DNA from: a virus
Taxonomy: Duplodnaviria > Caudoviricetes
Length of the DNA: 64,000 nucleotides
Virus record (IMG/VR): IMGVR_UViG_3300033075_001228
Reading direction: 5' to 3' (one strand)
Numbering within the stretch: the first letter of the stretch is position 1; every line of letters begins with the position of its first letter. Position numbers and translations under genes: made by a program. The notes below the pieces were generated by a model. It saw nothing but the letters and a program-made list of their open reading frames with translations, was not told the origin of the DNA and made no database searches. Below, piece by piece: positions 1 through 36,808 of the stretch.

Positions 1-2
1 AG

Positions 3-761
3 TTCAAGAAGAACCATGCGACTTGGATGCGCGATAACGCCCCGACCTCGCGACGCGATGTGACGTTTGCCAGGATTCTTGAAACAGCAGAACGTGTTGG
101 TTTTAGCATGCCAGCAATTAGCTCTGCGCTAGACGTTACCTGGACGCTAATCTACGATCGTCTTGTTAGCAATGGATTTTCAACGTTTGAGAAATTTGTC
201 AAAGCATACAGCGCAGGTCAACGAGAATCGAATCTTTCGCCAGGTAAACCTGGGCTTTTGACCCGTGATCTATCGATTGACCTAATCAAACGAAATTTGG
301 TTGCTGACGACACTAAACGATCGTTGTGTGTAAAGCTTGGCTGCACAGTTAACGTTCTTGATAAGTTTCTTGATCGCCGTGCTCAGACCACATGGTCTAA
401 GCTTCGAGCATCTCTTGGATTTAAGGATGAAGAATCGTCCATCGTTAAAAATGTCAGCCGCCGCGCCCGCTCAGGAGGCAGACCCAAAGGTTCAATAACG
501 TCTGGGATTACTTTTCAGCACGTTTGTAATGCATATACGCCAGGGTTGACCCGGGTTCGTCTTGCTAAAAAGCTAAAGACTAGTGCATCTGTTGTGATGC
601 GTGCGTTAGGGGACGCTGGGTACAGGAAGTACAGCGTTTTTCAGAAAACTTACGATAACTGCAAGGTTGTCTCTGTCGAGTACGTCGGAGAGATGCCTCT
701 CTATGACCTGACAGTCGACGGTTACAAGAACTTTGCAACCGACAGCGTGATCTCGCACAAC
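3..761 (+). mobile_element. Intein 1 in portal (C-terminal part only)
   Basis: Block F/G motifs PLYDLTVDGYKNFATDSVISHN followed by Thr+1 (T-PEIAAALD). The N-terminus lies outside the window. Confidence 0.9.
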
Positions 762-3700
762 ACCCCTGAGATCGCTGCGGCCCTCGACATCTATGCAGAC
801 GAGACTTGGGCGCAGGACGAAAAGGGAAGGGCGCTTCACGTATACTCTGACAACGAGAAGATCAAGGAGGTGCTTGAGGACCTCTTTTACAACACATTAA
901 ACGTAGAGTTCGCCGGCCGGTCGTGGGTAAGAAACCTCGTCAAGTATGGCGATTTCTTTCTTTTCAACGATATCTCGCCTGAGTATGGCGTTGTCAATGC
1001 GTTTCCTGTGCCGGTCAACGAGATCGAGCGCGAGGAGAACTTTGATCGCGACGATCCGTTTGCTGTCCGCTACCGTTGGGTGACGCTCGGCAACAGGACC
1101 CTAGAGAACTGGGAGATCACGCATTTCAGGCTGCTAGGCAACGACATGTTCCTGCCATACGGTTCTTCGATCATCGAGCCCGCTCGCCGCATCTGGCGCC
1201 AGCTGATCCTGATCGAGGACGCGATGTTGGTGTATCGAGTCGTTAGGGCGCCAGAACGTAGGGTGTTCTACATTGACGTTGCCAACGTGCCGCCTGAGAA
1301 CGTGCCGATGTATGTCGAGGAGCAACGTAGGAACCTACGTACAAACCAGGTCATCGACAACCAGTCGGGTCGCGTTGACCTAAGGTATAACCCGCTTCCT
1401 ATTCACAAGGATACCCCAATTCCGTTGCTTGATGGTACTACGATGACGATCGAAGCGTTGTCGAGGAAGATGAACGAGGAAGTTGGTTGGGTTCCGTGGG
1501 TTTACTCGGTGCAGGATAAAACTCAAAAGCTGGTTCCAGGTAAGGTTATTTGGTGTGGGAAGAACTACACTGCAACAACCTTGATCAAGGTTTGGCTTGA
1601 CGACGGTTCATATGTTACCACAGCACCTGAGCATCCATTCGTTATGCGTGATGGTTCAGCGAAACGAGCTGATGGGTTGTTGGTTGGTGACAGTCTGATG
1701 TCAGCGTACCGTGACCTGAATAATCGCGGTTATGAACGTATTATTGAACCTTCTGGTGACCGCATTTCAACGCATGTTATGGTCGCTCGGGATGTTTATG
1801 CAGAAAAATGGTCAATGACTGACCAACCCGTTGTTCATCACAAGCATCCTGAACAGAAGGAGACGAATAAGCGCAATAATTCACCTGATAACCTTGAGGT
1901 CATGAACTTTTGGGAACACAAAAAGATGCATGCCGAGCACTGTGAGCTGACACTCAATACCCCTGAACGTTTAGCTGTTCGAGCGGTGCAGATGGCAGAA
2001 TACAACAGGTCGGCGCAGCACCGCGCTCGTACAATCGAAATCAATAAGCGTGATCGCAAGGCTGAGCGTATGGGTGAGGCATACAACGGAACAGACCTTC
2101 ATAAAGCACATAATGAAAATCGTCGACAGGGTCAGCATAAGTCATGGGATGCCAACAAAGCCAAGCGCTCTGAGGCAATGCAATGGATCATTCCTAATGA
2201 GGTCGTGGGGTTTGCGTTCGAAGCGATCAAAGCAAACCCAAAGATTGGTCGTGAAGAATTGACGAGCGCAATTAGGAATGACGCTAGCATGTGTTCCTTG
2301 CTAAAACAGGCAAACGCTCAGAACAATCGTTCGTTGCTGCGATTTCACGTCAATGCGATTGTTTCAAAGCTTGTTCGAACTAAGTGCATTCCAGATTCAA
2401 ATTACAGAACATTTCGTCAGTTCGCTGCGAATAATTCACCCCCCGTTAATCACCAGGTTGTTAAGGTTGAAATTCTTGAAAATGTTTCAGATGATGTCTA
2501 TTGCATGACTGTTGTCGGTCCTAACCATGAAGACGATCGACACAATTTTGCAGTTAATGGATTGGGTGGGGAAATACCAGACAACCAATTGAAATCATTA
2601 GTTTTTGTGTGGAACTCGGTTGATGAGGACTACTTCATCCCTGTTCGTGGCAGCGACACCGGGACAAGGATCGACACCTTGGCTGGCGGCCAGAACACGG
2701 CAGCCGTTGAGGACGTAGCATACATCCAGAAGAAGCTTTTTGCAGCGCTTAAGATCCCTAGGGCTTACCTTGGATATGATGAATTGTTGAGCTGCCTTAC
2801 AGCTGACGCTAAAGTGCCATTGTTGTCCGGAGAATCGGTGGGTGTTCATGATTTGGCCCAGCTCGATTGGTCTAAGAAACAAGATGTTTGGGTATACTCA
2901 GCTGATCCAACGACTGGCTGCATTGTCCCTGGACGTGTAACAAGAGCGTGGTTGACACGTGAGACGAATGAACTATATGACGTTGTCATTGATGACGGCG
3001 GCTGTGTTCGTGTAACCGCTAACCATCCATTCCTGTGTCGTGATGGCGTCTATCGTCGTGCAGATGAGCTAACTCCAGGCCAAAGCTTGATGCCTCTTTA
3101 CAGAAAACTGTCTTCCTTGGACGATGGCGATTTTCAAAATGGGTATGAAAAGGTGTTGGATAACGAGTCTGGGTCGTGGGTCTACACGCATCGTTTGGTT
3201 GCTAACGCGGGGCTTGTGGCTGATGATTCTTCACGCCTGAACGAACATTCATACGTAGTTCATCATGTAAACCACAACAAACGCGATAACTCTCCTAACA
3301 ACCTCATCAAGATGGGTAAGAGGGCTCACGCGCTGTACCATGCCACGCAGGCGAAGAACCTGTTGGCTGACTATTCGCGTGATCGCCTGCGTGCTGTGAT
3401 GCGTACCGATCAGTACAAGGCAAAACATAAGGTTGGTGTGAAGCGAGCTTGGGACGTAGATGATGGTTCACGTCGGCTTAATGTTGCTATGAACAATGCT
3501 AAGCATAAGCAAAAAAACGTTGACCTTGCGGCGGCTCGCGCAGTTGCTAACACCTGTGAAAATCGAAATGAATTTTACAGAAAGATTGGGCTAACGTACA
3601 CTGGCTTCCGCAACGCCTGTAAGAGGCAAGGTGTTAACCACGGTGAGTGGCTCACTAGCGTTTTTGGAAACAAAAAGCTGGGTATCAAGCGAAATCATTG

Positions 3701-4823
3701 CGTTGTTTCGGTCACAAAGGTAGTGTTGGATAAACCGGTGCCTGTGTACGACCTCGAGGTTGAAAATTGGCACAACTTTGCAGTTGACACAGGCGTCGCA
3801 GGTGGATCAATTATAGTCCACAACAGCAAGGCGACGTTGGCTCAAGAAGATATTCGTTTTTCTCGAACCATCAATGTCATCCAACGAACGATGCTGGCTG
3901 AGCTCAACAAGCTGGCGATCATTCATCTTTATGCGCACGGCTACGACGGCGAAGACCTTCAAAACTTTACGTTGCGGCTGTCGAACCCATCATCCGTCGC
4001 GCAGCAGCAGAAGCTTGAGCTGTGGAGGGCAAAGTTTGAGATCGCTGGCTCCCGTCCAGAGGGCGTTGTTTCAAACGAGTTTATCATGAAAGAAATCTGG
4101 AACCTTGACGACGACAAGATCCAGAAGATCATGCAGCAGCAGATCGATGAAAAGATCTTTGCAACCAAGCTTGAGTCAGCTGGAGCCGGCGGAGAAGGAG
4201 AGGCAGGCGGCGGAGAAGATTTGTTTGGTGGTGATCTAGGCGGCGCGGGCGGCGGCGGCGAGGCCGGAGAGGTGACGCCCGAAGAAACTGGCGGAGGTGA
4301 AGAAGAAACTCCACCTGAAGAAAATGCGGGGGAAGAGCCTGAAGAAGAAGCTGACCCCGGCGTCCAGCTTTTGACGTCAGGTGACGAGGAAGACGATCGA
4401 TTTCTTCAGCTCGCTAGCGACAATGATGGGCCAGCGATCAAGCCACAGAACCAGCTGGATAAAGCTCTTTACAACAGAGGCCGCCGTCGCACCCACGGCG
4501 CATCTAAGACGCATTTTCCTGACTTCGTCAAGATGACAGGCAACGATAGCGAGTCAATGAAGGACCCGACAGACAGCGGCTGGATGAAATCGGTCGTCAG
4601 CAACCCGTTAGGCGAGTCATACGCTGATAGGCCATCATCGCGGTTTAACGGCCTGTCTCCTGACATGTATGCAACGTTACGAAAGATGTCAGAGAAGCTT
4701 GGCATCGTTAACAAGCGTTCATCTGTGTTGTCAGAAGGAGTTGACGTACAAGATGAGATTGACGTTAGCCTAAAAGACGATGAAACTGATCTTGGCGACG
4801 ACTGGGATATCTCCGATGAGTAG
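3..4823 (+). CDS. gp20: Portal protein (T4 gp20-like), 5'-truncated by the window, interrupted by three inteins
   Basis: Extein motifs typical of T4-like portals: TPEIAAALDIYADE, LIEDAMLVYRVVRAPERRVFYIDV, EDYFIPVRG, IDTLAGG, KLFAALKIP, EDIRF. The frame is open from the window start, so Met27 is internal. It is followed by protease, scaffold and MCP genes. Confidence 0.95.
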   Translation, partial: FKKNHATWMRDNAPTSRRDVTFARILETAERVGFSMPAISSALDVTWTLIYDRLVSNGFSTFEKFVKAYSAGQRESNLSPGKPGLLTRDLSIDLIKRNLVADDTKRSLCVKLGCTVNVLDKFLDRRAQTTWSKLRASLGFKDEESSIVKNVSRRARSGGRPKGSITSGITFQHVCNAYTPGLTRVRLAKKLKTSASVVMRALGDAGYRKYSVFQKTYDNCKVVSVEYVGEMPLYDLTVDGYKNFATDSVISHNTPEIAAALDIYADETWAQDEKGRALHVYSDNEKIKEVLEDLFYNTLNVEFAGRSWVRNLVKYGDFFLFNDISPEYGVVNAFPVPVNEIEREENFDRDDPFAVRYRWVTLGNRTLENWEITHFRLLGNDMFLPYGSSIIEPARRIWRQLILIEDAMLVYRVVRAPERRVFYIDVANVPPENVPMYVEEQRRNLRTNQVIDNQSGRVDLRYNPLPIHKDTPIPLLDGTTMTIEALSRKMNEEVGWVPWVYSVQDKTQKLVPGKVIWCGKNYTATTLIKVWLDDGSYVTTAPEHPFVMRDGSAKRADGLLVGDSLMSAYRDLNNRGYERIIEPSGDRISTHVMVARDVYAEKWSMTDQPVVHHKHPEQKETNKRNNSPDNLEVMNFWEHKKMHAEHCELTLNTPERLAVRAVQMAEYNRSAQHRARTIEINKRDRKAERMGEAYNGTDLHKAHNENRRQGQHKSWDANKAKRSEAMQWIIPNEVVGFAFEAIKANPKIGREELTSAIRNDASMCSLLKQANAQNNRSLLRFHVNAIVSKLVRTKCIPDSNYRTFRQFAANNSPPVNHQVVKVEILENVSDDVYCMTVVGPNHEDDRHNFAVNGLGGEIPDNQLKSLVFVWNSVDEDYFIPVRGSDTGTRIDTLAGGQNTAAVEDVAYIQKKLFAALKIPRAYLGYDELLSCLTADAKVPLLSGESVGVHDLAQLDWSKKQDVWVYSADPTTGCIVPGRVTRAWLTRETNELYDVVIDDGGCVRVTANHPFLCRDGVYRRADELTPGQSLMPLYRKLSSLDDGDFQNGYEKVLDNESGSWVYTHRLVANAGLVADDSSRLNEHSYVVHHVNHNKRDNSPNNLIKMGKRAHALYHATQAKNLLADYSRDRLRAVMRTDQYKAKHKVGVKRAWDVDDGSRRLNVAMNNAKHKQKNVDLAAARAVANTCENRNEFYRKIGLTYTGFRNACKRQGVNHGEWLTSVFGNKKLGIKRNHCVVSVTKVVLDKPVPVYDLEVENWHNFAVDTGVAGGSIIVHNSKATLAQEDIRFSRTINVIQRTMLAELNKLAIIHLYAHGYDGEDLQNFTLRLSNPSSVAQQQKLELWRAKFEIAGSRPEGVVSNEFIMKEIWNLDDDKIQKIMQQQIDEKIFATKLESAGAGGEGEAGGGEDLFGGDLGGAGGGGEAGEVTPEETGGGEEETPPEENAGEEPEEEADPGVQLLTSGDEEDDRFLQLASDNDGPAIKPQNQLDKALYNRGRRRTHGASKTHFPDFVKMTGNDSESMKDPTDSGWMKSVVSNPLGESYADRPSSRFNGLSPDMYATLRKMSEKLGIVNKRSSVLSEGVDVQDEIDVSLKDDETDLGDDWDISDE
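1398..2615 (+). mobile_element. Intein 2 in portal (Pro1, class-3-like, HNH endonuclease domain)
   Basis: Interrupts the portal motif RYNPL|SVDEDYF. Starts PIHKDTPIPLLDG, block B TTAPEHPF, HNH VVHHKHP...NKRNNSPDNL, block F DVYCMTV, ends VFVWN|S. Confidence 0.88.
2793..3824 (+). mobile_element. Intein 3 in portal (canonical Cys1, HNH endonuclease domain)
   Basis: Starts CLTADAKVPLLSG, block B VTANHPF, HNH VVHHVNHNKRDNSPNNL, block F PVYDLEV, ends IIVHN|S. Flanks rejoin as ELLS-SKATLAQEDIRF. Confidence 0.93.
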
Positions 4824-4840
4824 TTACGTCATTATGATGC

Positions 4841-4847
4841 ATAGTTA
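4841..4847 (+). promoter_or_regulatory. Putative late promoter ATAGTTA (first copy of a recurrent ATAnTTA motif)
   Basis: The same motif recurs upstream of many structural genes (see finding). Confidence 0.55.
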
Positions 4848-4902
4848 CAGATGATTGACCAGGTGTTGTCGATTGAACTGTAACGCGAAGGGTTGACCAG
4901 TA

Positions 4903-5763
4903 ATGTCAAAGTCCCATAACAAAAAAAGAAACGTTGGGTTGCTATATGAGTTTTTGGTTGCGACCATCTCCCGAGCGCTTGTTGAAGGCGACCAGCGGCT
5001 ATCCTCTCGGGCGTTGCGCGTCCTAAAAAAGCACTTTAAGCCTGGCACGGAGCTGTACAAAGAGTTTCGTTTGGTCAATTCGCTTAGCCGTACGACTGTG
5101 ACAACCGAAGGAGTCGCGGTGTCAATCTTACGTGAGGCTAAACAAGCAGTAAGGTCACACGACGTTAAGGAGCTAGACAGGCAAAAGTCGCTCCTTATCA
5201 GGGACATCAATCACTTGATCAGGGACGAAAACTTTTACGACCAACACATCCAGGAATACAGAAGCCTGGCGACGATCCAGACGTTGATCAATGCCTGGCG
5301 TTCTGGCGATGACATTGGGGTCATTGCTGAGTATGAGGATCGCCTTGCGCGTCACCTGCTTGCTGAAAAAACGCCTCGCGTAGACACCCCGTTGTCAGAG
5401 ACATCGCCTGGCGAAAATAGGCTTTTGATGAAGGTGATGATGAAGAAGCTAAACGAGAAATACGCTGGTGTTCTTAACGAAATGCAGCGTTCTCTTGTTA
5501 GGGCTTACGCTTTCTCAACCGCAAACGACGACACTGTGACGATCAAGCTTAAGCTGGCAGAGGTAAAAACTGCGTTGCTAGAATCGATGGATGCGTTTGT
5601 GGCCAAAAATCCAGATAACGAATACGTTAACTCGAAGATGTCAGCGGCTCGTCAGCAGCTGCTTAACGAACAGATGGAATCAGTTGATGATGAAATGGTG
5701 GCTAGGTTTATGCTGTACGCCAGGCTAAACTCAGAGCTTTGCATGGAGGACGACAATGCTTGA
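4903..5763 (+). CDS. Hypothetical head-module protein
   Basis: 286 aa helical ORF between portal and protease; overlaps the next start. Confidence 0.75.
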   Translation: MSKSHNKKRNVGLLYEFLVATISRALVEGDQRLSSRALRVLKKHFKPGTELYKEFRLVNSLSRTTVTTEGVAVSILREAKQAVRSHDVKELDRQKSLLIRDINHLIRDENFYDQHIQEYRSLATIQTLINAWRSGDDIGVIAEYEDRLARHLLAEKTPRVDTPLSETSPGENRLLMKVMMKKLNEKYAGVLNEMQRSLVRAYAFSTANDDTVTIKLKLAEVKTALLESMDAFVAKNPDNEYVNSKMSAARQQLLNEQMESVDDEMVARFMLYARLNSELCMEDDNA

Positions 5764-6412
5764 AGCAAAAAACGATGTGAGGCTGCTAAGCTCTTGGGAG
5801 GTCTTTGACTACAACCTCGTCACAGAGGAGGTGTCGCCTGCACGCACCTTTAAGGACGAACGTGGGCAAAACGTAGATGTACCAGCGGTAAAAAAGTACA
5901 TCATGAAGGGGATCCTGCAGAAGGCGGACACCTTGAACCAAAACGGAAGGATCTATCCGCTGTCTGTGCTGGAGAGGGAGGTGAGGAACTACCAAAAGTT
6001 CATCATTGAGAACAGGGCGATGGGAGAGCTTGATCACCCTGACACCTCGGTCGTCAACCTGAAAAATGCTTCACACCTGGTCAAGGAAGCTTACATCAAA
6101 AACGGCACCGTGTACGGGACCGTTGAGATCCTCGACAAGACGCCGTCTGGAGCGATCCTTAAGGGGTTGATCGATTCTGGGGTAAAGCTCGGGATCAGCT
6201 CTAGGGGCGTTGGGTCGACTAAGAAGCAAGGCGAGTATTACGTTGTACAGGACGATTTCCAGCTGATCTGTTGGGATTTTGTATCGGAGCCATCAACCCC
6301 GGGAGCATTCATGCTCCCTGAAGGTAAGCAAATCAACGAAGTTGAATTGCGAAAGCTTCTTTCGAAGTCTGACAGGATCGATAGAACGCTGAATGAGATC
6401 TTGAGGAAGTGA
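5756..6412 (+). CDS. gp21: Prohead core protease (T4 gp21-like)
   Basis: Motifs GILQKADTLNQNGRIYP, GELDHP, LGISSRGVGS, DFVSEPS. Confidence 0.95.
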   Translation: MLEAKNDVRLLSSWEVFDYNLVTEEVSPARTFKDERGQNVDVPAVKKYIMKGILQKADTLNQNGRIYPLSVLEREVRNYQKFIIENRAMGELDHPDTSVVNLKNASHLVKEAYIKNGTVYGTVEILDKTPSGAILKGLIDSGVKLGISSRGVGSTKKQGEYYVVQDDFQLICWDFVSEPSTPGAFMLPEGKQINEVELRKLLSKSDRIDRTLNEILRK

Positions 6413-10810: not shown

Positions 10811-12706
10811 ATGAAGTTTTTCACTATCGATCAGTTGGCAGCTGGCATCAAGGACCGCCACGTCGGCGCCGAGCGTGCTCGCCTTGTTGAGAAGTGGAGC
10901 CGCACCGGCCTGCTTCGCGGCCTCGACGGCAACAGGCGTGAGACGATGGCACAGCTGCTTGAGAACCAGGCAGCACAGGTCCTCAAGGAGTCAAACGCTT
11001 TGTCGACCGGCGGCGGTGCGCTTGCATCGTCCGGACAGGTCCAGGGCTTCTCGAACATCGCTTTCCCGATCGTTCGACGCGTGTTCGGCGGCCTTGTCGC
11101 CAACGAGCTCATCTCGATCCAGACGATGTCCCTGCCTTCAGGCCTCATCTTCTACATCGACTACACCTATGGTTCGAACGTAGGCACCACGCAGTCAGAC
11201 TCAGGCACGTTTGAGACGTACTCTCGCGGCCAGTCGATCTACAACAACCCAGCGGGCCGCGGCGTGCAGTCAGGCTCTTTGGCGACCGGCGGTATGTACG
11301 ACCTCGTCAACGTCGGCTACACCAAGGTCCACTCTGGAACCATGGGCGTCTCCGGTAGCACCGCAGACGTCGGTGCATGGGGCGGCGTCAACGGCGATAC
11401 CTGGTCTTCAGGCCTTGTCCTCTCGGACTCTAGCCAGATGTCAGGCACCAACGGACGTATGTTGGGCTACGATCCTCAGGTCGAGGTTGACCTCGGTTCG
11501 AACGTTCTTGACGTTACCTTTGCACACCTGTCTGTTTCTCAGATCCAGACTGTGATTCCAAAGGGTGACTTCCTCGCTGTTGAGCAGATCTCGATCTTTG
11601 CGTTTGCAACGACCAATGGTGCAGTCGCATGGGGCGAGAGCTACCAGTCAGGCCGCGGCGTCATGAACCTTCGCCGCCTCAACAAGCGCGGAAACTGGAG
11701 CGGCTCGGTCTTCACGCCGGCTCCGCTCAACGGAACGCACATCCAGGTGGTCCTTAGGATCACCCCAGGCAGCACGGTTCCGGTCCTTGGCGCGACCACG
11801 AGGCTAAGCATGGCAATCGCTGACGAGGTTCAGCGTACTGACGGCACTGCGGGCGGCATCGGCTCGACCTTGACTGTTCCGTCGTTCGAGTCTGACTTTG
11901 GTACGTCACCGACCCCGGTGATCCCAGAGATCGACATCAAGATCGAGTCGATCGCAATCACCGCTACGTCGCGAAAGCTGCGTGCAAGGTGGTCGCCGGA
12001 AATGGCACAGGACCTCAACGCGTACCACGCCCTGGACGCCGAGGTCGAGCTGACCAGCATCCTCAGCGAGCAGATCGCTCTCGAGATTGACCGAGAGATC
12101 CTCAACGACCTGGTACTCCAGGCAAACGGCGCGAACATGTACTGGAGCCGTGCACCGGGCAGGTTCGTCAACAAGCTGACCGGCCAGGCACAGACCTTGG
12201 CATCAAGCCTCAGCATCGGTCCGCAGTTCACCGGCACCATCCGTGAGTGGTATGAGGGCCTGATCGAGACCGTCATCGACGTGGCAAACACCATCCATCG
12301 TAAGACCTTCCGAGGCTCTGCGAACTTCATGGTGACTGGCCCAGACGTCTGCACCATCCTGGAGAGCTCTGTGCTCTACAAGCCGAAGTTTTCGCTCGAC
12401 GGCGAAGGCCAGGTCGGTTCTCCGTTTACCATCGGAGCCGAGGCGATCGGCACGGTGTCGAACAGGTTCACGGTCTACAAGGATCCTTACTTCCCAAGGA
12501 ACAAGATCCTCGTCGGCTACAAGGGCGGAAGCTACCTGGAGACAGGCTATGTGTACGCTCCGTACGTCCCGCTGATCGTCACGCCGACGATCTTCGCTCC
12601 GGAGGACTTCACGCCTCGTAAGGGTGTGATGACCAGGTACGGAAAGAAAATGGTCAGGAGTGACTTTTATGGGACTGTGACCGTACTTGACATGAACATA
12701 ATTTAA
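10811..12706 (+). CDS. gp23: Major capsid protein (T4 gp23-like)
   Basis: QLLENQ, FPIVRRVF, RKLRARWSPEMAQDLNAYH, ALEIDREI, GYVYAPYVPL, PRKGVMTRYG; strong C/G third-position codon bias. Confidence 0.97.
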   Translation: MKFFTIDQLAAGIKDRHVGAERARLVEKWSRTGLLRGLDGNRRETMAQLLENQAAQVLKESNALSTGGGALASSGQVQGFSNIAFPIVRRVFGGLVANELISIQTMSLPSGLIFYIDYTYGSNVGTTQSDSGTFETYSRGQSIYNNPAGRGVQSGSLATGGMYDLVNVGYTKVHSGTMGVSGSTADVGAWGGVNGDTWSSGLVLSDSSQMSGTNGRMLGYDPQVEVDLGSNVLDVTFAHLSVSQIQTVIPKGDFLAVEQISIFAFATTNGAVAWGESYQSGRGVMNLRRLNKRGNWSGSVFTPAPLNGTHIQVVLRITPGSTVPVLGATTRLSMAIADEVQRTDGTAGGIGSTLTVPSFESDFGTSPTPVIPEIDIKIESIAITATSRKLRARWSPEMAQDLNAYHALDAEVELTSILSEQIALEIDREILNDLVLQANGANMYWSRAPGRFVNKLTGQAQTLASSLSIGPQFTGTIREWYEGLIETVIDVANTIHRKTFRGSANFMVTGPDVCTILESSVLYKPKFSLDGEGQVGSPFTIGAEAIGTVSNRFTVYKDPYFPRNKILVGYKGGSYLETGYVYAPYVPLIVTPTIFAPEDFTPRKGVMTRYGKKMVRSDFYGTVTVLDMNII

Positions 12707-30652: not shown

Positions 30653-33600
30653 ATGACCGAACAGACTTTTAGGTCTCCGAACTTTTACGAACGTGAGATC
30701 GACCTCTCAGCCCCACAGCTGCGCGGCCCCGTTGGAACACCTGCCGGTGTCATCGGAACAGCCAACAAAGGCCCTGCATTCGTGCCTGTCACAGTTGCTA
30801 ACTTTGACGAGTTTGTTGCTACGTTTGGCAACCTTGACCCGAAGAAGTTTGGTCCTTATGCTGTCAATGAATTTCTAAAGCATCGTTCAGCGTTGACATA
30901 CCTGAGGGTGCTAGGCGCGGGAGCAAACAGCACTGACACGCACATTGCAACCACAGTTCAAAAGGGTCGGGTCAACAACGCAGGCTTCTACCTCGAGGGG
31001 TCGGCAGCCGCGCACGACAGCAGGGGCCGCCACGTAGGCGCAGTCCAGTTTTTGGCGGCCCGTCACATGTTGCAGACGAACGAAGCGTTTGGCCTGCCGA
31101 TGTTCACCGACAACCGCAGCTTTAGCGGCGGCTTTGCAAACGTTGTTCGCGGCATGGTTTTGATGGCGTCTGGAGCCAGGATGATGGTTCTTGACGGCAA
31201 CGAGAGTGCGGTCGGAGCGTTCACCGCGGCTGGCCCAGACGACCTTGCAACGCCTGTAGGCGGCAAGTTTAAGCTCGTCATCTCGTCTACGCTTGGCAAC
31301 GGATTCGTCAACACTGACAATAACCCTGGCGTCAGGATCCTGACCGCGTCGCTGGACCCATCGTCATCAGACTACTTCGGAAAGATCCTGAACACAGATC
31401 CAGACAGGTTTGTCCAAGAGCAGCACCTGCTCTACAGCGACTTTGCTGTCGACGACGAGCTTGCGACAGCTGTGTCTGTCGCTGTGCTGTCGGGTTCTGA
31501 GTCGACAAGCTCGACCTCAGGTGACACGAGCCTGGTCTTTAGGAAGGCGTTCGGAGCGTTTGACACCAGGTACCAGACGCCGCGTTCAACGATGTTTATC
31601 TCGCAGCCGTTCGGTGCGACAGAGTACGACCTGTTCTACTTCGAGTCGCTGGACGATGGAGAGTTTGCGAACAAGCTCTACAAGATTTCGATCACAAACA
31701 TCAAGGCTTCTCTTGATGAGGCCAAGCCGTATGGCACCTTCACAGTGCAGATTAGGGACTGGAATGACACAGACGCTAACCCGTTGGTCCTAGAGTCGTT
31801 CCCTAACTGCTCGCTTGATCCTCAGGCAGAGAACTATGTCGCTAAGCTAATCGGCGATCGAAAGGTCTACTACAACTTTGACTCATCGCTGCTCGAGGAA
31901 CGTCGCGTAGTGATGACAGGCAAGTACCCGAACGTTTCCAAGCTGGTTAGGGTTCGGGTCTCTGACCAGGTAGAAAACGCGCTCGTTCCTCAAAAGTCTC
32001 TGCCATTTGGTTTCAGGGGCATCGAGGTGCTGAAGACAAACGATTCGTTGCTCGACAGCAACTCATCTGTTCCACGAATTGTTGGCGTCCTGGGGGTTGG
32101 CTCAGGCTCAGCGTTGTCAGGTTCGATCCTTCCTCCTCTTCCGTTCCGGTTTAAGGTGACAAAGGGTGAGCTTCCAACGTCAACAGCTTTTGAAGGCCAG
32201 CCGGGTCCGTCTGAGCTTGCAAACAGCCAGCTAACGTGGGGCATTAAGTTTGAGCGTAACACTGTTCCGCTGAACCCAAACCTGTCATCTGAAAAGAACA
32301 AGCTGCTTGAGTCGTACACAAAGTTCTTGGGTATCAAGAAGCTTGACGTGCTGGTGACTGGTTCCGGCGCAGACCAGTTCAATGATAATAAGTTCACCCT
32401 AGCAAAAGTGGCGTTCTCAAACACAAGCATCACGCACCTGACTGGAACGATCAACGACCACATGCGAGAGGCTGCATACCTCCGTAACGGTGTCCTGGAC
32501 AACTCGCAGTACACGATCAACACCAGCATCGGCCGCCGAATCACGTTTGCAACAGTCTTGGCACAGGACTCGGCTGCCAACTTCAACAAGTGGTCTGCCT
32601 TCACAAAGTTCACCAACATGATGTATGGTGGCTATGACGGCGTCAACATCCTTGACCGTGACGCCAAGCGGCTTAACGACAAGTCAACGTCGTTTGACGC
32701 TGGCGGTGGAGCTGAATCAAGCTATGTAGCGCCAGGAATGCTGATCAATCCAAACGGGGCAGGTCAGTCAAACTCAACCGTGCTTTCATACACAACTGCG
32801 ATTGACATCATGACAGACCCGATGATGGTCAAGACAAACATCCTTGCCATCCCGGGAATCAGGGAATCGTTCATCACAGATTATGCGATGAAGAAGGTCC
32901 GTGACTACGGGCTTGCATACTATGTCATGGACATCCCGTCATATGATGACTCATCAAACAGGCTCTATGACGACTCGACTGCGCGCCCGGACGTAGACAA
33001 GACTGCGTCGGCGTTTGACACTCGCGCAGTTGATAACAACTACGCTGGCACATACTTCCCTAACGTCTTCATCGACGACCAGACGAACAGGCGCCGTGTA
33101 AAGGTTCCTTCGTCAGTCGCAGCGATGGGTGCATTGGCGTTTAACGACAGGGTGACGTACCCATGGTTTGCGCCAGCAGGATTCAACAGGGCTTCGTTGG
33201 ACTTTGTGAACAACGTTGAGGTAAGGCTTAACGTTTCCGACAGGGACACCCTGTATGACTCAAGGATCAACCCGATCGCAACATTCCCAAGGCTTGGCTT
33301 TGTCATCTACGGCCAGAAGACGTTGCAGGTTGCAAAGTCGGCGCTTGACAGGGTCAACGTGAGGCGCCTGCTTCTTGAGGTGAAGAGGATCATCATCGAC
33401 ATTGCAAACGCAATGGTCTTTGAGCAAAACACCCCAGCTGTCAGGAACAAGTTTGTCTCAGACGCTGTTCTTCAGCTAGGCCTGATCCAGGCACAGGCTG
33501 GAATTGAAGCGTTCAGGGTGATCTGCAATGAGACCAACAACTCTCAGGAAGACGTGGACCTCAACAAGCTAAACGGTCGTATCGTTGTTGTTCCAACGCG

Positions 33601-33661
33601 TGTGATCGAGTTCATTGCGATCGACTTCATTATCACGAACGCGGGAGTCCAGTTCGTTTAA
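30653..33661 (+). CDS. gp18: Tail sheath protein 1
   Basis: SPNFYEREIDLS, KGPAFVP, PWFAPAGFNR, INPI, GQKTLQ, ALDRVNVRRLL, FEQN, EFIAIDF. Confidence 0.95.
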   Translation: MTEQTFRSPNFYEREIDLSAPQLRGPVGTPAGVIGTANKGPAFVPVTVANFDEFVATFGNLDPKKFGPYAVNEFLKHRSALTYLRVLGAGANSTDTHIATTVQKGRVNNAGFYLEGSAAAHDSRGRHVGAVQFLAARHMLQTNEAFGLPMFTDNRSFSGGFANVVRGMVLMASGARMMVLDGNESAVGAFTAAGPDDLATPVGGKFKLVISSTLGNGFVNTDNNPGVRILTASLDPSSSDYFGKILNTDPDRFVQEQHLLYSDFAVDDELATAVSVAVLSGSESTSSTSGDTSLVFRKAFGAFDTRYQTPRSTMFISQPFGATEYDLFYFESLDDGEFANKLYKISITNIKASLDEAKPYGTFTVQIRDWNDTDANPLVLESFPNCSLDPQAENYVAKLIGDRKVYYNFDSSLLEERRVVMTGKYPNVSKLVRVRVSDQVENALVPQKSLPFGFRGIEVLKTNDSLLDSNSSVPRIVGVLGVGSGSALSGSILPPLPFRFKVTKGELPTSTAFEGQPGPSELANSQLTWGIKFERNTVPLNPNLSSEKNKLLESYTKFLGIKKLDVLVTGSGADQFNDNKFTLAKVAFSNTSITHLTGTINDHMREAAYLRNGVLDNSQYTINTSIGRRITFATVLAQDSAANFNKWSAFTKFTNMMYGGYDGVNILDRDAKRLNDKSTSFDAGGGAESSYVAPGMLINPNGAGQSNSTVLSYTTAIDIMTDPMMVKTNILAIPGIRESFITDYAMKKVRDYGLAYYVMDIPSYDDSSNRLYDDSTARPDVDKTASAFDTRAVDNNYAGTYFPNVFIDDQTNRRRVKVPSSVAAMGALAFNDRVTYPWFAPAGFNRASLDFVNNVEVRLNVSDRDTLYDSRINPIATFPRLGFVIYGQKTLQVAKSALDRVNVRRLLLEVKRIIIDIANAMVFEQNTPAVRNKFVSDAVLQLGLIQAQAGIEAFRVICNETNNSQEDVDLNKLNGRIVVVPTRVIEFIAIDFIITNAGVQFV

Positions 33662-33754: not shown

Positions 33755-36700
33755 ATGGCACAGCTAAAGTTTGGAAGCGCAGGGGTTGCGGCAAAGGAGA
33801 TTGACCTATCGGGTCCAGTTACGCAGCAGCCAGTTGGCGTTCCAGCAGGCGTCGTCGGCACAGCGCTTCAGGGGCCGGCATTTGTGCCGGTTACCGTAGG
33901 GCTGCTGAGCGACTTTTACGCAAAGTTCGGTAAGACTGACGGCAAAAAGTTTGGGCCGCTAGCGGTGTCTGAATGGCTACGAAACGCAGGTTCTGTTACG
34001 TACCTTCGGGTGTTGGGCGTCGGTGACGGTCTAGAACGCAATGCTGACGGTTCAGTGACGAACGCTGGCTTCACGGTGGGTGAGAACCAACCTCGTGCTG
34101 TCGATGGCGTCATGTTTGGCAACCCATACGCTACGTCTGGAAGCAACAGCGTTCCGGGCAGAACGTACTTTTTGGGTGCATTCATGTCTGAGTCTGCTGG
34201 TTCAACTGTCTTTTCAGACGCGGGCCTGTTAGGGGTAGGTGGTATCACACCGTATGGCACCGGCTCAGCGTTGCCGATCATTCGTGGCGTCTTGATGGCA
34301 GCCTCAGGCGTCATCCTCCGGCTGTCTTCGTCGGTCACTGCGTCTTCTGCGCCTGCTTCTACGTTGGTGGCCACCGAGCAGAGCTCACAGGGTGCACACT
34401 TTGGTGCAATTGTTTTGCTCGATGGTACCGTTGCTAAGCAGGACTTTGTGCTTCTATTGAACGGTCACAAGGGAACTGACTCGCTGTACCCGAACGTGAT
34501 CACGGCCTCGTTTGACATGACGTCGCCGAACTACTTTGCAAACGTCCTCAACAAGGATCCGCTGAAGTACCAGCAGGCGGGTCACTACCTGTATGCGCAT
34601 TGGGACCTTCACCCTTCGACCGCTGTTGTCACCGGCTCTGGCCTTCTTTCCACGGCTTCTGGCTCCGGGGCCTCAACTGCGCCTAAGGTCGGCGCTGAGA
34701 TCGCTGCGTTCATCACGACCGGTTCGACCGCAAGGAACGTCGGCAGCTCGGTGGTGCCAAACTACGAGTCGTTTACCGATAGGTTTGCACACGCTAAGTC
34801 ACCGTGGGTCATCTCGCAGCGCTTTGGCGGAGTAGCAACAGACCTGTTTAGGCTACACGCCCTTGACGCTGGGGCTGGCATCTCGACAAACTTCAAGATT
34901 TCGATTGAAAACATCGTTCCTTCGACTGACCCTGCGAACCAATACGGAAGCTTTGACCTGATCGTCCGAGATTGGAACGACAACGACGGCAACGTAAAGG
35001 CGCTCGAGCAGTGGAGAGGCGTGAACCTGGACCCAAGCTCAGACAGGTACATTGCTAAGGTCATCGGTGACGCACACATCTTCTACAACTTTGATCAGTC
35101 TGAGGCAGGACAAAAGATCATCGTCGACGGCAACTATCCAAACAAGTCTAATCTTGTCAGGGTTGAGGTCTCGACCGACGTTGACAACATGACCGTTGAC
35201 CCAACGGCGTTGCCTTTTGGCGTCAGGGGCGTCAGCCACCTGATGACGTCTGGCTCGGCCCCGATGTCCAGCCCGCCAGTTACGTCTAGCGCTGGCGTGT
35301 TGACGTCCAACCTGTTGAAGAGGGTGATTGAGGCTCCTCTGCCGCTAAGGAAGAACATCACGCAGGGTTCAGGCGCTAAGCTTAGCGTCAACCCGTTGCT
35401 TTACTGGGGCGTTCGTTTTGAGCACATCACCAGCTTAACGACTCCAAATGCCAGCACGTTGCAGGATAAGTCGCTTCTAAGCTTTGCAAAGTACTTCCCT
35501 GACTTCGCGGAGACAAACCAGAACTTCGTTGTGGGTGACAACGCCGGAACGCCAGCCACAGCTGAGAACGGCGAGATTGACGCGGACAGGTTCTGCAGAA
35601 ACGTCTTCTCCCTGGAGAACATCCAGGTCGTCACCAACTCTACCGGCTTGGCCGACTCGGCTGAGTGGGACCAGGCAACGTATGTCCGAGACGGCAACAT
35701 CTCGGCGAACGCCTCTGCCAAGACGCGAAGGCTCGCTTCAAGCGACTTCATCCAGGCAAACCGTCGTTTCATCAAGTACTCTTTCCTCATGCAGGGAGGG
35801 TTTGACGGCGTCAACCTCTTTGACAAGGATGAGTCTGAGATCAACAACAACGCTGTCGTTGCTGACATGAATGATGCAAACCGCGGCCGACAGGACGGAC
35901 CGTCGGTCAGGGCGTACATCAAGGCGTTGGACATCATGAAAAACGTGGTGAACACGGACATCCAGCTGCTGGCCATTCCAGGCATCAGGCACCCAGTCGT
36001 CTCAGACTCAGCGATTAGCTCGGTTGAAGAGCGTTTTGATGCGTTGTACCTCATGGACATCGAGCAACTCGATAACGCGGGTGACAACGTGATCTCTGAT
36101 AGCCAGCTACCTTCGGTCACGCTCACCGTCAACAACTTCCGTGACAGGGCGCTTGACAGCAGCTTCGCTGCAGCATACTTCCCTGACGTGGTGATGCCAG
36201 ATCCAAACACGAAGAGCAACGTCGTCGTGCCGCCTTCGGTCGTAGTCCTCGGCGCCTTGGCGCTTAACGACGCTGTCGGTCACCCGTGGTTTGCTCCAGC
36301 AGGAACAACGCGTGGCGCGCTGTCGACGACCCTTGAGGCCCGCGTGCAGCTGTCGAAGACAAACATGGACAACATGTATGACGTCGGCATCAACCCTCTC
36401 GTTGCGTTTCCAGGGAACGCAACCTCTGGAACCAACCCAAAGGGCGGCGTTGTGGTGTGGGGTCAGAAGACGCTACAGGCTGCTGCGAGCGCCCTTGACC
36501 GTGTGAACGTCAGGCGTCTCCTCATCGACATCCGTCGCCAGGTTCGTGAGATCGCAAACACGATCATCTTTGAGCCAAACAGGGAGTCCACGCTCGCCAA
36601 GTTCTCAGCTGCGGTCACGCCCCGACTGCAGAGGATCCAGGCGCTGTCTGGCCTTGAAAGGTTTAGGGTCATCATCGATTCGTCGACAACGACCCAGGCT

Positions 36701-36808
36701 GATGTGGAGAACAATACCATTCGCGGGAAAATCTTCGTGCAACCGACCAAATCGATTGAGTTTGTTTCGCTTGACTTCGTTGTCACAAACAACATCAACC
36801 AAGCATAA
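33755..36808 (+). CDS. gp18: Tail sheath protein 2 (paralogue)
   Basis: EIDLS, GPAFVP, PWFAPAG, GQKTLQ, ALDRVNVRRLL, FEPN, QPTKSIEFV. Confidence 0.95.
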   Translation: MAQLKFGSAGVAAKEIDLSGPVTQQPVGVPAGVVGTALQGPAFVPVTVGLLSDFYAKFGKTDGKKFGPLAVSEWLRNAGSVTYLRVLGVGDGLERNADGSVTNAGFTVGENQPRAVDGVMFGNPYATSGSNSVPGRTYFLGAFMSESAGSTVFSDAGLLGVGGITPYGTGSALPIIRGVLMAASGVILRLSSSVTASSAPASTLVATEQSSQGAHFGAIVLLDGTVAKQDFVLLLNGHKGTDSLYPNVITASFDMTSPNYFANVLNKDPLKYQQAGHYLYAHWDLHPSTAVVTGSGLLSTASGSGASTAPKVGAEIAAFITTGSTARNVGSSVVPNYESFTDRFAHAKSPWVISQRFGGVATDLFRLHALDAGAGISTNFKISIENIVPSTDPANQYGSFDLIVRDWNDNDGNVKALEQWRGVNLDPSSDRYIAKVIGDAHIFYNFDQSEAGQKIIVDGNYPNKSNLVRVEVSTDVDNMTVDPTALPFGVRGVSHLMTSGSAPMSSPPVTSSAGVLTSNLLKRVIEAPLPLRKNITQGSGAKLSVNPLLYWGVRFEHITSLTTPNASTLQDKSLLSFAKYFPDFAETNQNFVVGDNAGTPATAENGEIDADRFCRNVFSLENIQVVTNSTGLADSAEWDQATYVRDGNISANASAKTRRLASSDFIQANRRFIKYSFLMQGGFDGVNLFDKDESEINNNAVVADMNDANRGRQDGPSVRAYIKALDIMKNVVNTDIQLLAIPGIRHPVVSDSAISSVEERFDALYLMDIEQLDNAGDNVISDSQLPSVTLTVNNFRDRALDSSFAAAYFPDVVMPDPNTKSNVVVPPSVVVLGALALNDAVGHPWFAPAGTTRGALSTTLEARVQLSKTNMDNMYDVGINPLVAFPGNATSGTNPKGGVVVWGQKTLQAAASALDRVNVRRLLIDIRRQVREIANTIIFEPNRESTLAKFSAAVTPRLQRIQALSGLERFRVIIDSSTTTQADVENNTIRGKIFVQPTKSIEFVSLDFVVTNNINQA

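Follow-up and report, generated by a model that had tools for sequence, protein, structure and literature searches.

A proline-first intein in the portal gene of a T4-like phage

The DNA analysed here, referred to as the window, is the complete stretch of 64,000 nucleotides of the IMG/VR virus record IMGVR_UViG_3300033075_001228 (Duplodnaviria; Caudoviricetes). Its first gene is an open reading frame (ORF; 3..4823, + strand) that is open at the 5' end, is read through uninterrupted over 1606 codons and encodes a T4-type, gp20-like portal protein (Pfam Portal_T4, E 5e-60). Three inteins lie in this reading frame, of which the first is truncated by the window start, the second occupies 1398-2615 and the third 2793-3824 (hereafter inteins #1 to #3). 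Intein #2 starts with a proline in place of a nucleophile. It is a typical member of a large and uncharacterised lineage of proline-first HNH inteins in T4-like portal genes, and sequence, conservation and modelled fold make it probable that it is a functional mobile HNH intein, which splices by the class 3 route through the cysteine at position F4 and derives from class 1 HNH inteins of portal genes. The intein, its blocks and the flanking portal segments (exteins) are as follows.

762..1397, + strand: portal extein, the N-extein of the Pro1 intein, ending in RVDLRYNPL (Portal_T4 match; alignment gapless across the junction)
1398..2615, + strand: Pro1 intein, 406 amino acids (Pro1 to Trp405-Asn406, then Ser+1), in frame with the portal ORF
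1398..1436, + strand: block A, PIHKDTPIPLLDG, with Pro1 (CCT, 1398-1400) in the position of the class 1 nucleophile
1533..1568, + strand: hairpin motif VPGKVIWCGKNY with Cys53 (TGT, 1554-1556)
1617..1655, + strand: block B, TTAPEHPFVMRDG, with Ala at B7, His79 at B10 (1632-1634) and Phe at B12 (1638-1640); Trp occupies this position in class 3 inteins with the Trp-Cys-Thr (WCT) signature
1830..1931, + strand: HNH homing-endonuclease core, VVHHK...NKRNNSPDNLEVM...EHKKMH, aligning with the HNH region of intein #3
2490..2555, + strand: block F, DDVYCMTVVGPNHEDDRHNFAV, with Cys369 at F4 (TGC, 2502-2504), a 6-residue insertion (G-x-x-G-E-x), D-R and then His382 of H-N-F (2541-2543)
2595..2615, + strand: block G, SLVFVWN, with Val at G5, Trp405 at G6 (2610-2612) and Asn406 at G7 (2613-2615)
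2616..2792, + strand: portal extein, SVDEDYFIPVRG...DELLS, beginning with Ser+1 (TCG, 2616-2618), the C-extein nucleophile

The translation of 1398-2615 reads PIHKDTPIPLLDG...TTAPEHPF...DDVYCMTV...SLVFVWN and continues with SVDEDYF. An N-terminal splicing part is followed by the HNH endonuclease, a helical domain and the C-terminal splicing part. Blocks A, B (with His B10), F and G are all present, as is a C-terminal Asn followed by Ser. Compared on its own with Pfam Intein_splicing, the intein scores 35.2 bits (E 1.3e-8; gathering threshold 35.8). Its HNH core gives a weak match to Pfam HNH_3 (E 0.065, 13.3 bits versus a cut-off of 24.8) and aligns with the HNH region of intein #3, which itself scores 22 bits. 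This core is kept in full-size homologues and deleted in mini forms. An earlier note, made from the sequence alone, had placed the intein at these coordinates and had read Pro1, H-P-F in block B, VYC in block F and VFVWN/S in block G; translation and junction evidence bear out the coordinates to the base, and each motif lies where it had been read.

Splice junctions

Once the 406 residues are taken out, the exteins align gaplessly to two intein-less portals, those of Microcystis phage Mel-JY01 and Flavobacterium phage immuto. In the metagenomic alleles P0096 and P0117, which are closely related and have no insert at this site, the sequence is RYNPL-SVDEDYFIPVRG, with nothing in between, as predicted for the ligated exteins. 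In the inteins with Cys at position 1 (Cys1 inteins) that occupy the same site, Cys1 falls in the alignment column of Pro1, and these inteins end in H-N/S. Finally, in an AlphaFold2 model of the precursor, residues 7..412 (Pro1 to Asn406) superpose on residue 1 to the last residue of solved inteins. Because of these four lines of evidence the junction is exact, and the earlier note's own proviso, that the true junction might lie at a nearby Cys or Ser, is ruled out. The insertion point lies in one of the most conserved motifs of the portal protein.

A lineage of Pro1 inteins at two portal sites

A large protein collection was searched with the intein and short extein flanks, which yielded 1045 proteins at E <= 0.001. 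Inteins were extracted by their extein motifs from the best 120 of these matches and from the window, and all counts out of 115 given below rest on this set. The earlier note had proposed a search for homologues at the same portal site, and these proved to be numerous: 97 of the 120 listed matches span extein, intein and extein at the site of the window intein, and this site (RYNPL/...SVDED) holds at least 95 Pro1 inteins and at least 11 Cys1 inteins. At least 20 further Pro1 inteins of the same type occupy a second portal site (WxRNL/...CKYGD), and at least 19 Cys1 inteins were found at the site of intein #3.

Pro1, Cys F4, His B10 and the His of H-N-F are invariant in all Pro1 inteins of the two sites (115/115). 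The terminal residue (G7) is Asn in 112 and Gln in three of them; the Gln-ending members are all found at the window site (3/95), for example L005:637-1821 (..GIVFVKQ/SVDED). The +1 residue is Ser in 94 inteins and Thr in one at the window site, and Cys in 20/20 at the second site. Other positions vary more widely. Position G5 holds L, V or I in 93/95 inteins at the window site and Thr in 1/115 overall; B12 is Phe (79), Tyr (15) or Met (1) at the window site and Trp in 9/20 at the second site; B7 is Ala in 95/95 at the window site and Thr or Ser at the second. His is found at the penultimate position (G6) in none of the 115, and the 95 members at the window site have Lys (39), Arg (13), Leu (11), Gly (10), Trp (9) and others, also Val and Met. 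A relative with 95% identity has Arg where the window intein has Trp. The Trp-Asn ending that the earlier note had singled out is thus incidental, and the penultimate position is unconstrained.

At the codon level, position 1 is encoded in 18 distinct DNAs by all four Pro codons, each conserved Cys by either Cys codon, and Ser+1 by codons of both families (TCN and AGC). As the amino acids are kept while their codons vary, the conserved residues are evidently held by selection on the protein. Mini-inteins of 173-276 amino acids, from which the endonuclease is gone, retain Pro1, Cys F4, His B10 and the His of H-N-F, and IMG/VR loci add full-size and mini versions (173-249 amino acids) with the same motifs. 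Since minis without the endonuclease keep all conserved residues, the function that is maintained appears to be splicing. In the natural minis L013, L015, L016 and L019/L020 from IMG/VR, the HNH and helical domains are deleted to differing extents, while Pro1, Cys53, Cys F4 and the block F insertion are kept; the one at L019:268-786 comprises 173 amino acids. These minis are good candidates for biochemistry.

Carriers of a Pro1 intein at the second site include P0004, P0023, P0028, P0032, P0035, P0060-P0062, P0067, P0073 and P0074, as well as P0094, P0096, P0104, P0106, P0114 and P0121. Their inteins are also of the Pro1/Cys F4/Cys53 type, with Cys at +1. The second-site intein of P0094 falls within the clade of the window site, and this grouping suggests a switch of site. 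In the window portal itself the second site is empty (around nucleotides 930-950, RNLVKYGDFF).

Relation to known intein classes

Class 3 inteins are defined by a non-nucleophilic residue 1, Trp(B12)-Cys(F4)-Thr(G5), Thr or Ser at +1 and an obligate Cys nucleophile in block F, which forms the first branched intermediate (PMC2807308). The prototype from mycobacteriophage Bethlehem is known to splice by class 3 chemistry, and it has Pro1, Cys F4 and Ser/Thr+1 (PMC2807308); the class has been described as a monophyletic clade (Tori & Perler 2011, as cited in PMC3196547 and PMC4031507). Where class 1 inteins have Cys, Ser or Thr at position 1, all 115 members of the present lineage have Pro. The class 3 features found in the window intein are the non-nucleophilic residue 1, Cys F4 (Cys369 in VYCMTV) and Ser+1, and Cys369 aligns with the F4 Cys of nine inteins with the WCT or Asn-Cys-Thr (NCT) triplet. 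Class 2 inteins are all KlbA orthologues with Ala1 and Cys+1 that need Asp F4 (PMC4031507); here Pro1, Ser+1, Cys F4 and a portal host were found.

Hoffmann et al. (2020) used an operational definition of class 3, namely no Cys at the N-terminal end and a Cys at motif C2:4 (PMC7891396). The window intein falls within this definition by Pro1 and Cys369. In the non-redundant (nr) protein database these authors counted 1701-1702 class 3 inteins, of which 82.5% carry LAGLIDADG, 1685 have the WCT triplet and seven have 'FCV'; the last are counted in their Table S1 and not described (PMC7891396). The triplet of the window intein is FCV as well. The sole nr member of the lineage that we traced, PCI27525.1, is absent from the accession table of Hoffmann et al.

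Compared with WCT class 3 inteins (the Bethlehem prototype; Msm and Mch DnaBi1, PDB 6BS8 and 6RIX), the window intein shares a non-nucleophilic residue 1, which is also Pro in the prototype, together with Cys F4, His B10, the terminal Asn, Ser/Thr at +1 and residence in phage genes. It differs in having Phe B12, Val G5 and no penultimate His, in the additional Cys53 and block F insertion, in HNH instead of LAGLIDADG, and in its insertion into a portal motif instead of a P-loop. A splicing-domain identity of ~17% and a fold Z of about 16, versus about 20 to class 1, further separate the two.

The AceL NrdHF split intein (PDB 6ZGQ) resembles the window intein in its non-WCT triplet (Met-Cys-Thr, MCT) and in the lack of a penultimate His. 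Its class 3 mechanism is proven although it has Met instead of Trp at B12 and neither the block F His nor the penultimate His (PMC7891396), so that Cys F4 chemistry tolerates such deviations. Unlike the window intein, AceL NrdHF keeps Thr G5, lacks the block F His, is split, starts with Ala1 and resides in a ribonucleotide reductase.

The same full-length architecture is found in Cys1 HNH inteins, namely the site-mates in P0108, P0035 and P0073, intein #3, and the dCTP deaminase intein of Aphanizomenon phage vB_AphaS-CL131. The site-mates share the insertion site and Ser+1 with the Pro1 intein, and many have Cys F4. In contrast to the Pro1 intein, the Cys1 HNH relatives have Cys1, Thr B7, usually a penultimate His, Ala53 and no insertion in block F; their splicing presumably follows the usual class 1 pathway.

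Some observations concern the comparison set. In GenBank, the host of the class 3 prototype is the Bethlehem terminase gp11 (L026:4681-5703), annotated as 'hypothetical protein', and the 'DnaB' in the literature name of this intein disagrees with the GenBank record. Bethlehem gp52, a recombination directionality factor (RDF; annotated 'phosphoesterase'; L024:7578-9296, - strand), was considered as the prototype and rejected, as its intein is of class 1, with Cys both at position 1 and at F4 and with Gly as the penultimate residue. The phiCbK TerL intein, which its authors likened to the Bethlehem intein, was rejected as a member of the lineage; it has a His-Asn ending and lies after the P-loop Lys.

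Phylogeny and fold

The earlier note had also proposed a phylogeny against the known intein classes. The alignment comprised the N-terminal 110 and C-terminal 80 residues with the trait columns removed (181 columns), and the sample consisted of the portal inteins together with five further inteins of class 1 (that of Bethlehem RDF and four with HNH) and nine of class 3 from phage genomes (eight WCT and one NCT). In the unrooted tree, the Pro1 inteins of both sites form a single clade with a Shimodaira-Hasegawa-like approximate likelihood ratio test (SH-aLRT) value of 99, and the WCT set forms a separate long branch. The best trees place the Pro1 clade among the Cys1 HNH inteins, and its sister in the best LG+G4 tree, again unrooted, consists of Cys1 inteins that all have Cys F4. 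This grouping with class 1 stands beside an approximately unbiased (AU) test that does not reject a sister relationship to the WCT inteins, as discussed below. Under the posterior mean site frequency (PMSF) mixture model, a quick free search missed a better tree.

Mean identity of the splicing domains points the same way as the best trees. The Pro1 inteins are on average 35-36% identical to the Cys1 HNH inteins of portals, as against 16.8% for the WCT set, and they are no nearer to the latter than the Cys1 inteins are. The similarity to the Cys1 site-mates extends through the HNH and helical domains. The AlphaFold2 model (mean predicted local distance difference test, pLDDT, of 80.9) shows a Hedgehog/intein (HINT) fold, which in VIA-align reaches Z 19-20 against the inteins NrdJ-1, Ssp DnaB and Mtu RecA, at a root mean square deviation of 1.5-1.9 Å over 138-147 residues. 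Against four class 3 structures the model reaches Z 15.9-16.4, below the class 1 structures. Sequence searches of PDB, run both with the intein sequence by itself and with a profile of 15 sequences, yielded weak class 1 matches and no class 3 match, which counts as weak evidence. Because of identity, HNH architecture, fold Z and the best tree, a position of the lineage with the class 1 HNH inteins of the same gene is better supported than one with WCT class 3.

Proposed splicing mechanism and alternatives

In the chemistry that we infer, the usual first (thio)ester would be impossible with Pro1. Instead, Cys369 (F4), aided by His79, would attack the Leu(-1)-Pro1 bond and give a thioester-branched intermediate, from which the N-extein would pass from the Cys369 thioester to Ser+1. 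Asn406 would then cyclise and free the intein, with help from His382 and not from a penultimate His, and an O-to-N shift from ester to peptide bond would seal the portal. The class 3 route was chosen since position 1 offers no nucleophile, since F4 is situated between the two junctions in inteins of solved or modelled structure (PMC2807308, PMC7891396), and since Cys F4 is kept without exception in both sub-lineages, irrespective of the +1 residue. Moreover, a direct attack of Ser+1 on an amide is unattractive, and class 2 needs Asp F4 (PMC4031507). According to the earlier note, the intein should splice and would be either a class-3-like variant or a lineage of its own whose catalytic set-up differs, and all evidence at the level of sequence agrees with this suggestion.

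Several observations weigh against a class 3 route of class 1 origin. Trp B12 and Thr G5 of the class 3 signature are both missing, replaced by Phe and Val. The AU test does not reject a grouping of the Pro1 and WCT inteins (p 0.80 under PMSF and p 0.27 under LG+G4), and the trees are unrooted. Cys F4 is not specific to Pro1 inteins: it also occurs in 9/11 Cys1 site-mates, in a subgroup of the inteins at the site of intein #3 (QTWCMEV...SN/S), in the dCTP deaminase HNH intein of vB_AphaS-CL131 and in the Bethlehem RDF intein. As Cys1 inteins carry it, Cys F4 alone does not prove a role as nucleophile. To judge from these comparisons, it is Cys53 and not Cys F4 whose presence goes with that of Pro1.

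This bears on an alternative in which Cys53 initiates splicing or the two cysteines form an obligatory relay, a chemistry outside classes 1-3. Cys53 lies at the tip of the hairpin between blocks A and B (VPGKVxWCGKNY) and is the second invariant Cys of the Pro1 inteins, present in 115/115 at both sites and encoded by both Cys codons. The same position is Ala in 11/11 Cys1 site-mates at the window site, most of which already have Cys F4, and Cys in 1/19 Cys1 inteins at the site of intein #3; Cys53 therefore looks like a change that accompanied the loss of Cys1. There is also a precedent on the same hairpin, as Cys48 of the class 3 intein DnaBi1, a Cys outside the blocks between A and B, is required for splicing and becomes disulfide-bonded to the catalytic Cys at F4 under oxidative stress (PMC6195587). 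However, DnaBi1 Cys48 lies 11-12 Å from the catalytic Cys and was judged not to be directly catalytic (PMC6195587), and in the alignment Cys53 does not share a column with the Cys48 of DnaBi1-like inteins. The co-occurrence of Cys53 with Pro1 amounts to one evolutionary event in a monophyletic clade and not to repeated covariation. In all characterised inteins, F4 lies between both splice junctions (PMC2807308, PMC7891396). Initiation by Cys53 is thus unlikely. By analogy to DnaBi1, Cys53 may rather position or tune Cys369 or act as a redox latch; an acyl relay is less likely. For the Ssp DnaE intein, His48 at the corresponding hairpin tip is reported to bind zinc jointly with Asp F4 and Cys+1 (Sun et al. 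2005), a parallel on which no weight is placed here.

Besides Cys53, a conserved 6-residue insertion followed by Asp-Arg precedes H-N-F in block F of the Pro1 inteins, and neither is found in the Cys1 relatives. Cys53, the block F insertion and the loss of the penultimate His appear, in these alignments, to have arrived with Pro1. One might speculate that the insertion, with its invariant Glu, Asp and Arg, replaces the missing Thr G5 and penultimate His.

In a class-2-like alternative, the +1 residue would attack the N-terminal scissile amide directly and Cys F4 would merely assist. As in KlbA inteins (PMC4031507), residue 1 is no nucleophile and the penultimate residue is not His, and the 20 second-site members even have Cys+1. 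At the window site, however, +1 is Ser in 94/95, a poor nucleophile for attack on an amide; the KlbA orthologues differ in the features given above, among them the required Asp F4 (PMC4031507), and Cys F4 is without exception in the 115 Pro1 inteins. We regard this alternative as rather improbable.

It is very improbable that the element is a decayed, non-splicing intein, tolerated by the portal or removed in another way. The lack of a canonical Cys1 and of a penultimate His, and a Pfam score just below the gathering threshold, would fit decay. In contrast, the frame is open over all its codons, and the remaining catalytic residues are invariant down to about 31-35% identity in spite of synonymous codon turnover. 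The mini derivatives keep their splicing blocks, and the second site keeps the same type of intein with its own Cys+1. Selection at the protein level, an essential host gene, an insertion into a conserved portal motif and the minis leave little room for a dead intein. An N-terminal junction at a neighbouring Ser, Thr or Cys, which would make the intein an ordinary class 1 element, can practically be dismissed, as the Thr at intein position 6 (PIHKDT) is an ordinary block A position 6, and the empty-site alleles, the intein-less portals of cultured phages, the Cys1 of the site-mates and the superposed model all place the junction at Pro1.

Origin and implications of the Pro1 lineage

Since Cys1 site-mates and other class 1 HNH inteins have it, Cys F4 appears to be older than the loss of Cys1. 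The most likely origin of the Pro1 inteins, as we infer it from these comparisons, would be class 1 HNH portal inteins that already had Cys F4, separately from the WCT class. A more specific scenario is put forward tentatively. Class-3-type splicing may have arisen a second time, independently of WCT, within class 1 HNH portal inteins. The path would lead through Cys1/Cys F4 intermediates at the same site, which still live, to Pro1 and Cys F4 with a second essential Cys on the A-B hairpin and the block F insertion, and without Trp B12, Thr G5 and the penultimate His.

When the WCT triplet was transferred to a class 1 intein, no working class 3 intein resulted, and a possible separate ancestry of class 3 was therefore suggested (PMC7664689). 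The portal inteins offer a natural series in one gene and partly at one site, from Cys1/Asp F4 over Cys1/Cys F4 to Pro1/Cys F4 with Cys53. With this series, which includes easily expressed minis, a change of the first nucleophile could be tested by swapping a few residues. As the group is large and evidently successful without Trp B12, Thr G5 and a penultimate His, these residues would seem to be dispensable there. If Cys53 and Cys369 were a redox pair as in DnaBi1, maturation of the portal could be under redox control. For protein engineering, a fast mini-intein requiring Ser+1 alone, with no cysteine at either junction, would be a useful tool.

The portal gene and its surroundings

The remaining parts of the portal reading frame are the following.

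3..761, + strand: C-terminal part of portal intein #1, ending in SVISHN/T, a canonical class 1 ending (ORF translation; Pfam Intein_splicing at the C-terminal end of 3-764)
2793..3824, + strand: portal intein #3, a canonical class 1 HNH intein (CLTADAK...NHPF...VYDLEV...IIVHN/S; Pfam Intein_splicing 54.8 bits and HNH_3)
3825..4823, + strand: C-terminal portal extein, including a long acidic tail rich in Gly and Glu, and stop codon (translation; extein alignment)

Intein #3 is a paralogue of the Pro1 intein, with 33% identity over 222 amino acids. Related metagenomic portals carry up to four inteins at four sites, and the intein complement varies even among portals with 95% identity: in P0003, the third site holds a different intein with F4-Cys and a Ser-Asn ending. 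The nearest portals are those of Microcystis phage Mel-JY01 and the Flavobacterium immuto phages (41-44% identity). The acidic, low-complexity stretch rich in Gly, Glu and Pro at 4140-4330, within the C-terminal extein, is absent from both. A megablast of window positions 1-6000 against INPHARED gave no match to a cultured relative, and tblastn of the intein against cultured phages found distant class 1 HNH inteins only.

Downstream (3') of the portal gene follow genes for a prohead protease of the gp21 type and a major capsid protein of the gp23 type, and two genes of sheath-like proteins. Given these genes, this region is the structural module of an uncultured T4-like myovirus. The two adjacent sheath-like genes (30653-33661 and 33755-36808) encode ~1000 amino acids each, with a C-terminal tail-sheath domain (Pfam Phage_sheath_1C), which suggests duplicated or very large sheath proteins. 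The major capsid protein (10811-12706) has 631 amino acids and matches Pfam Gp23 in two stretches, the best at residues 367-622; since the match is split, an inserted segment or additional domain may lie in its N-terminal half.

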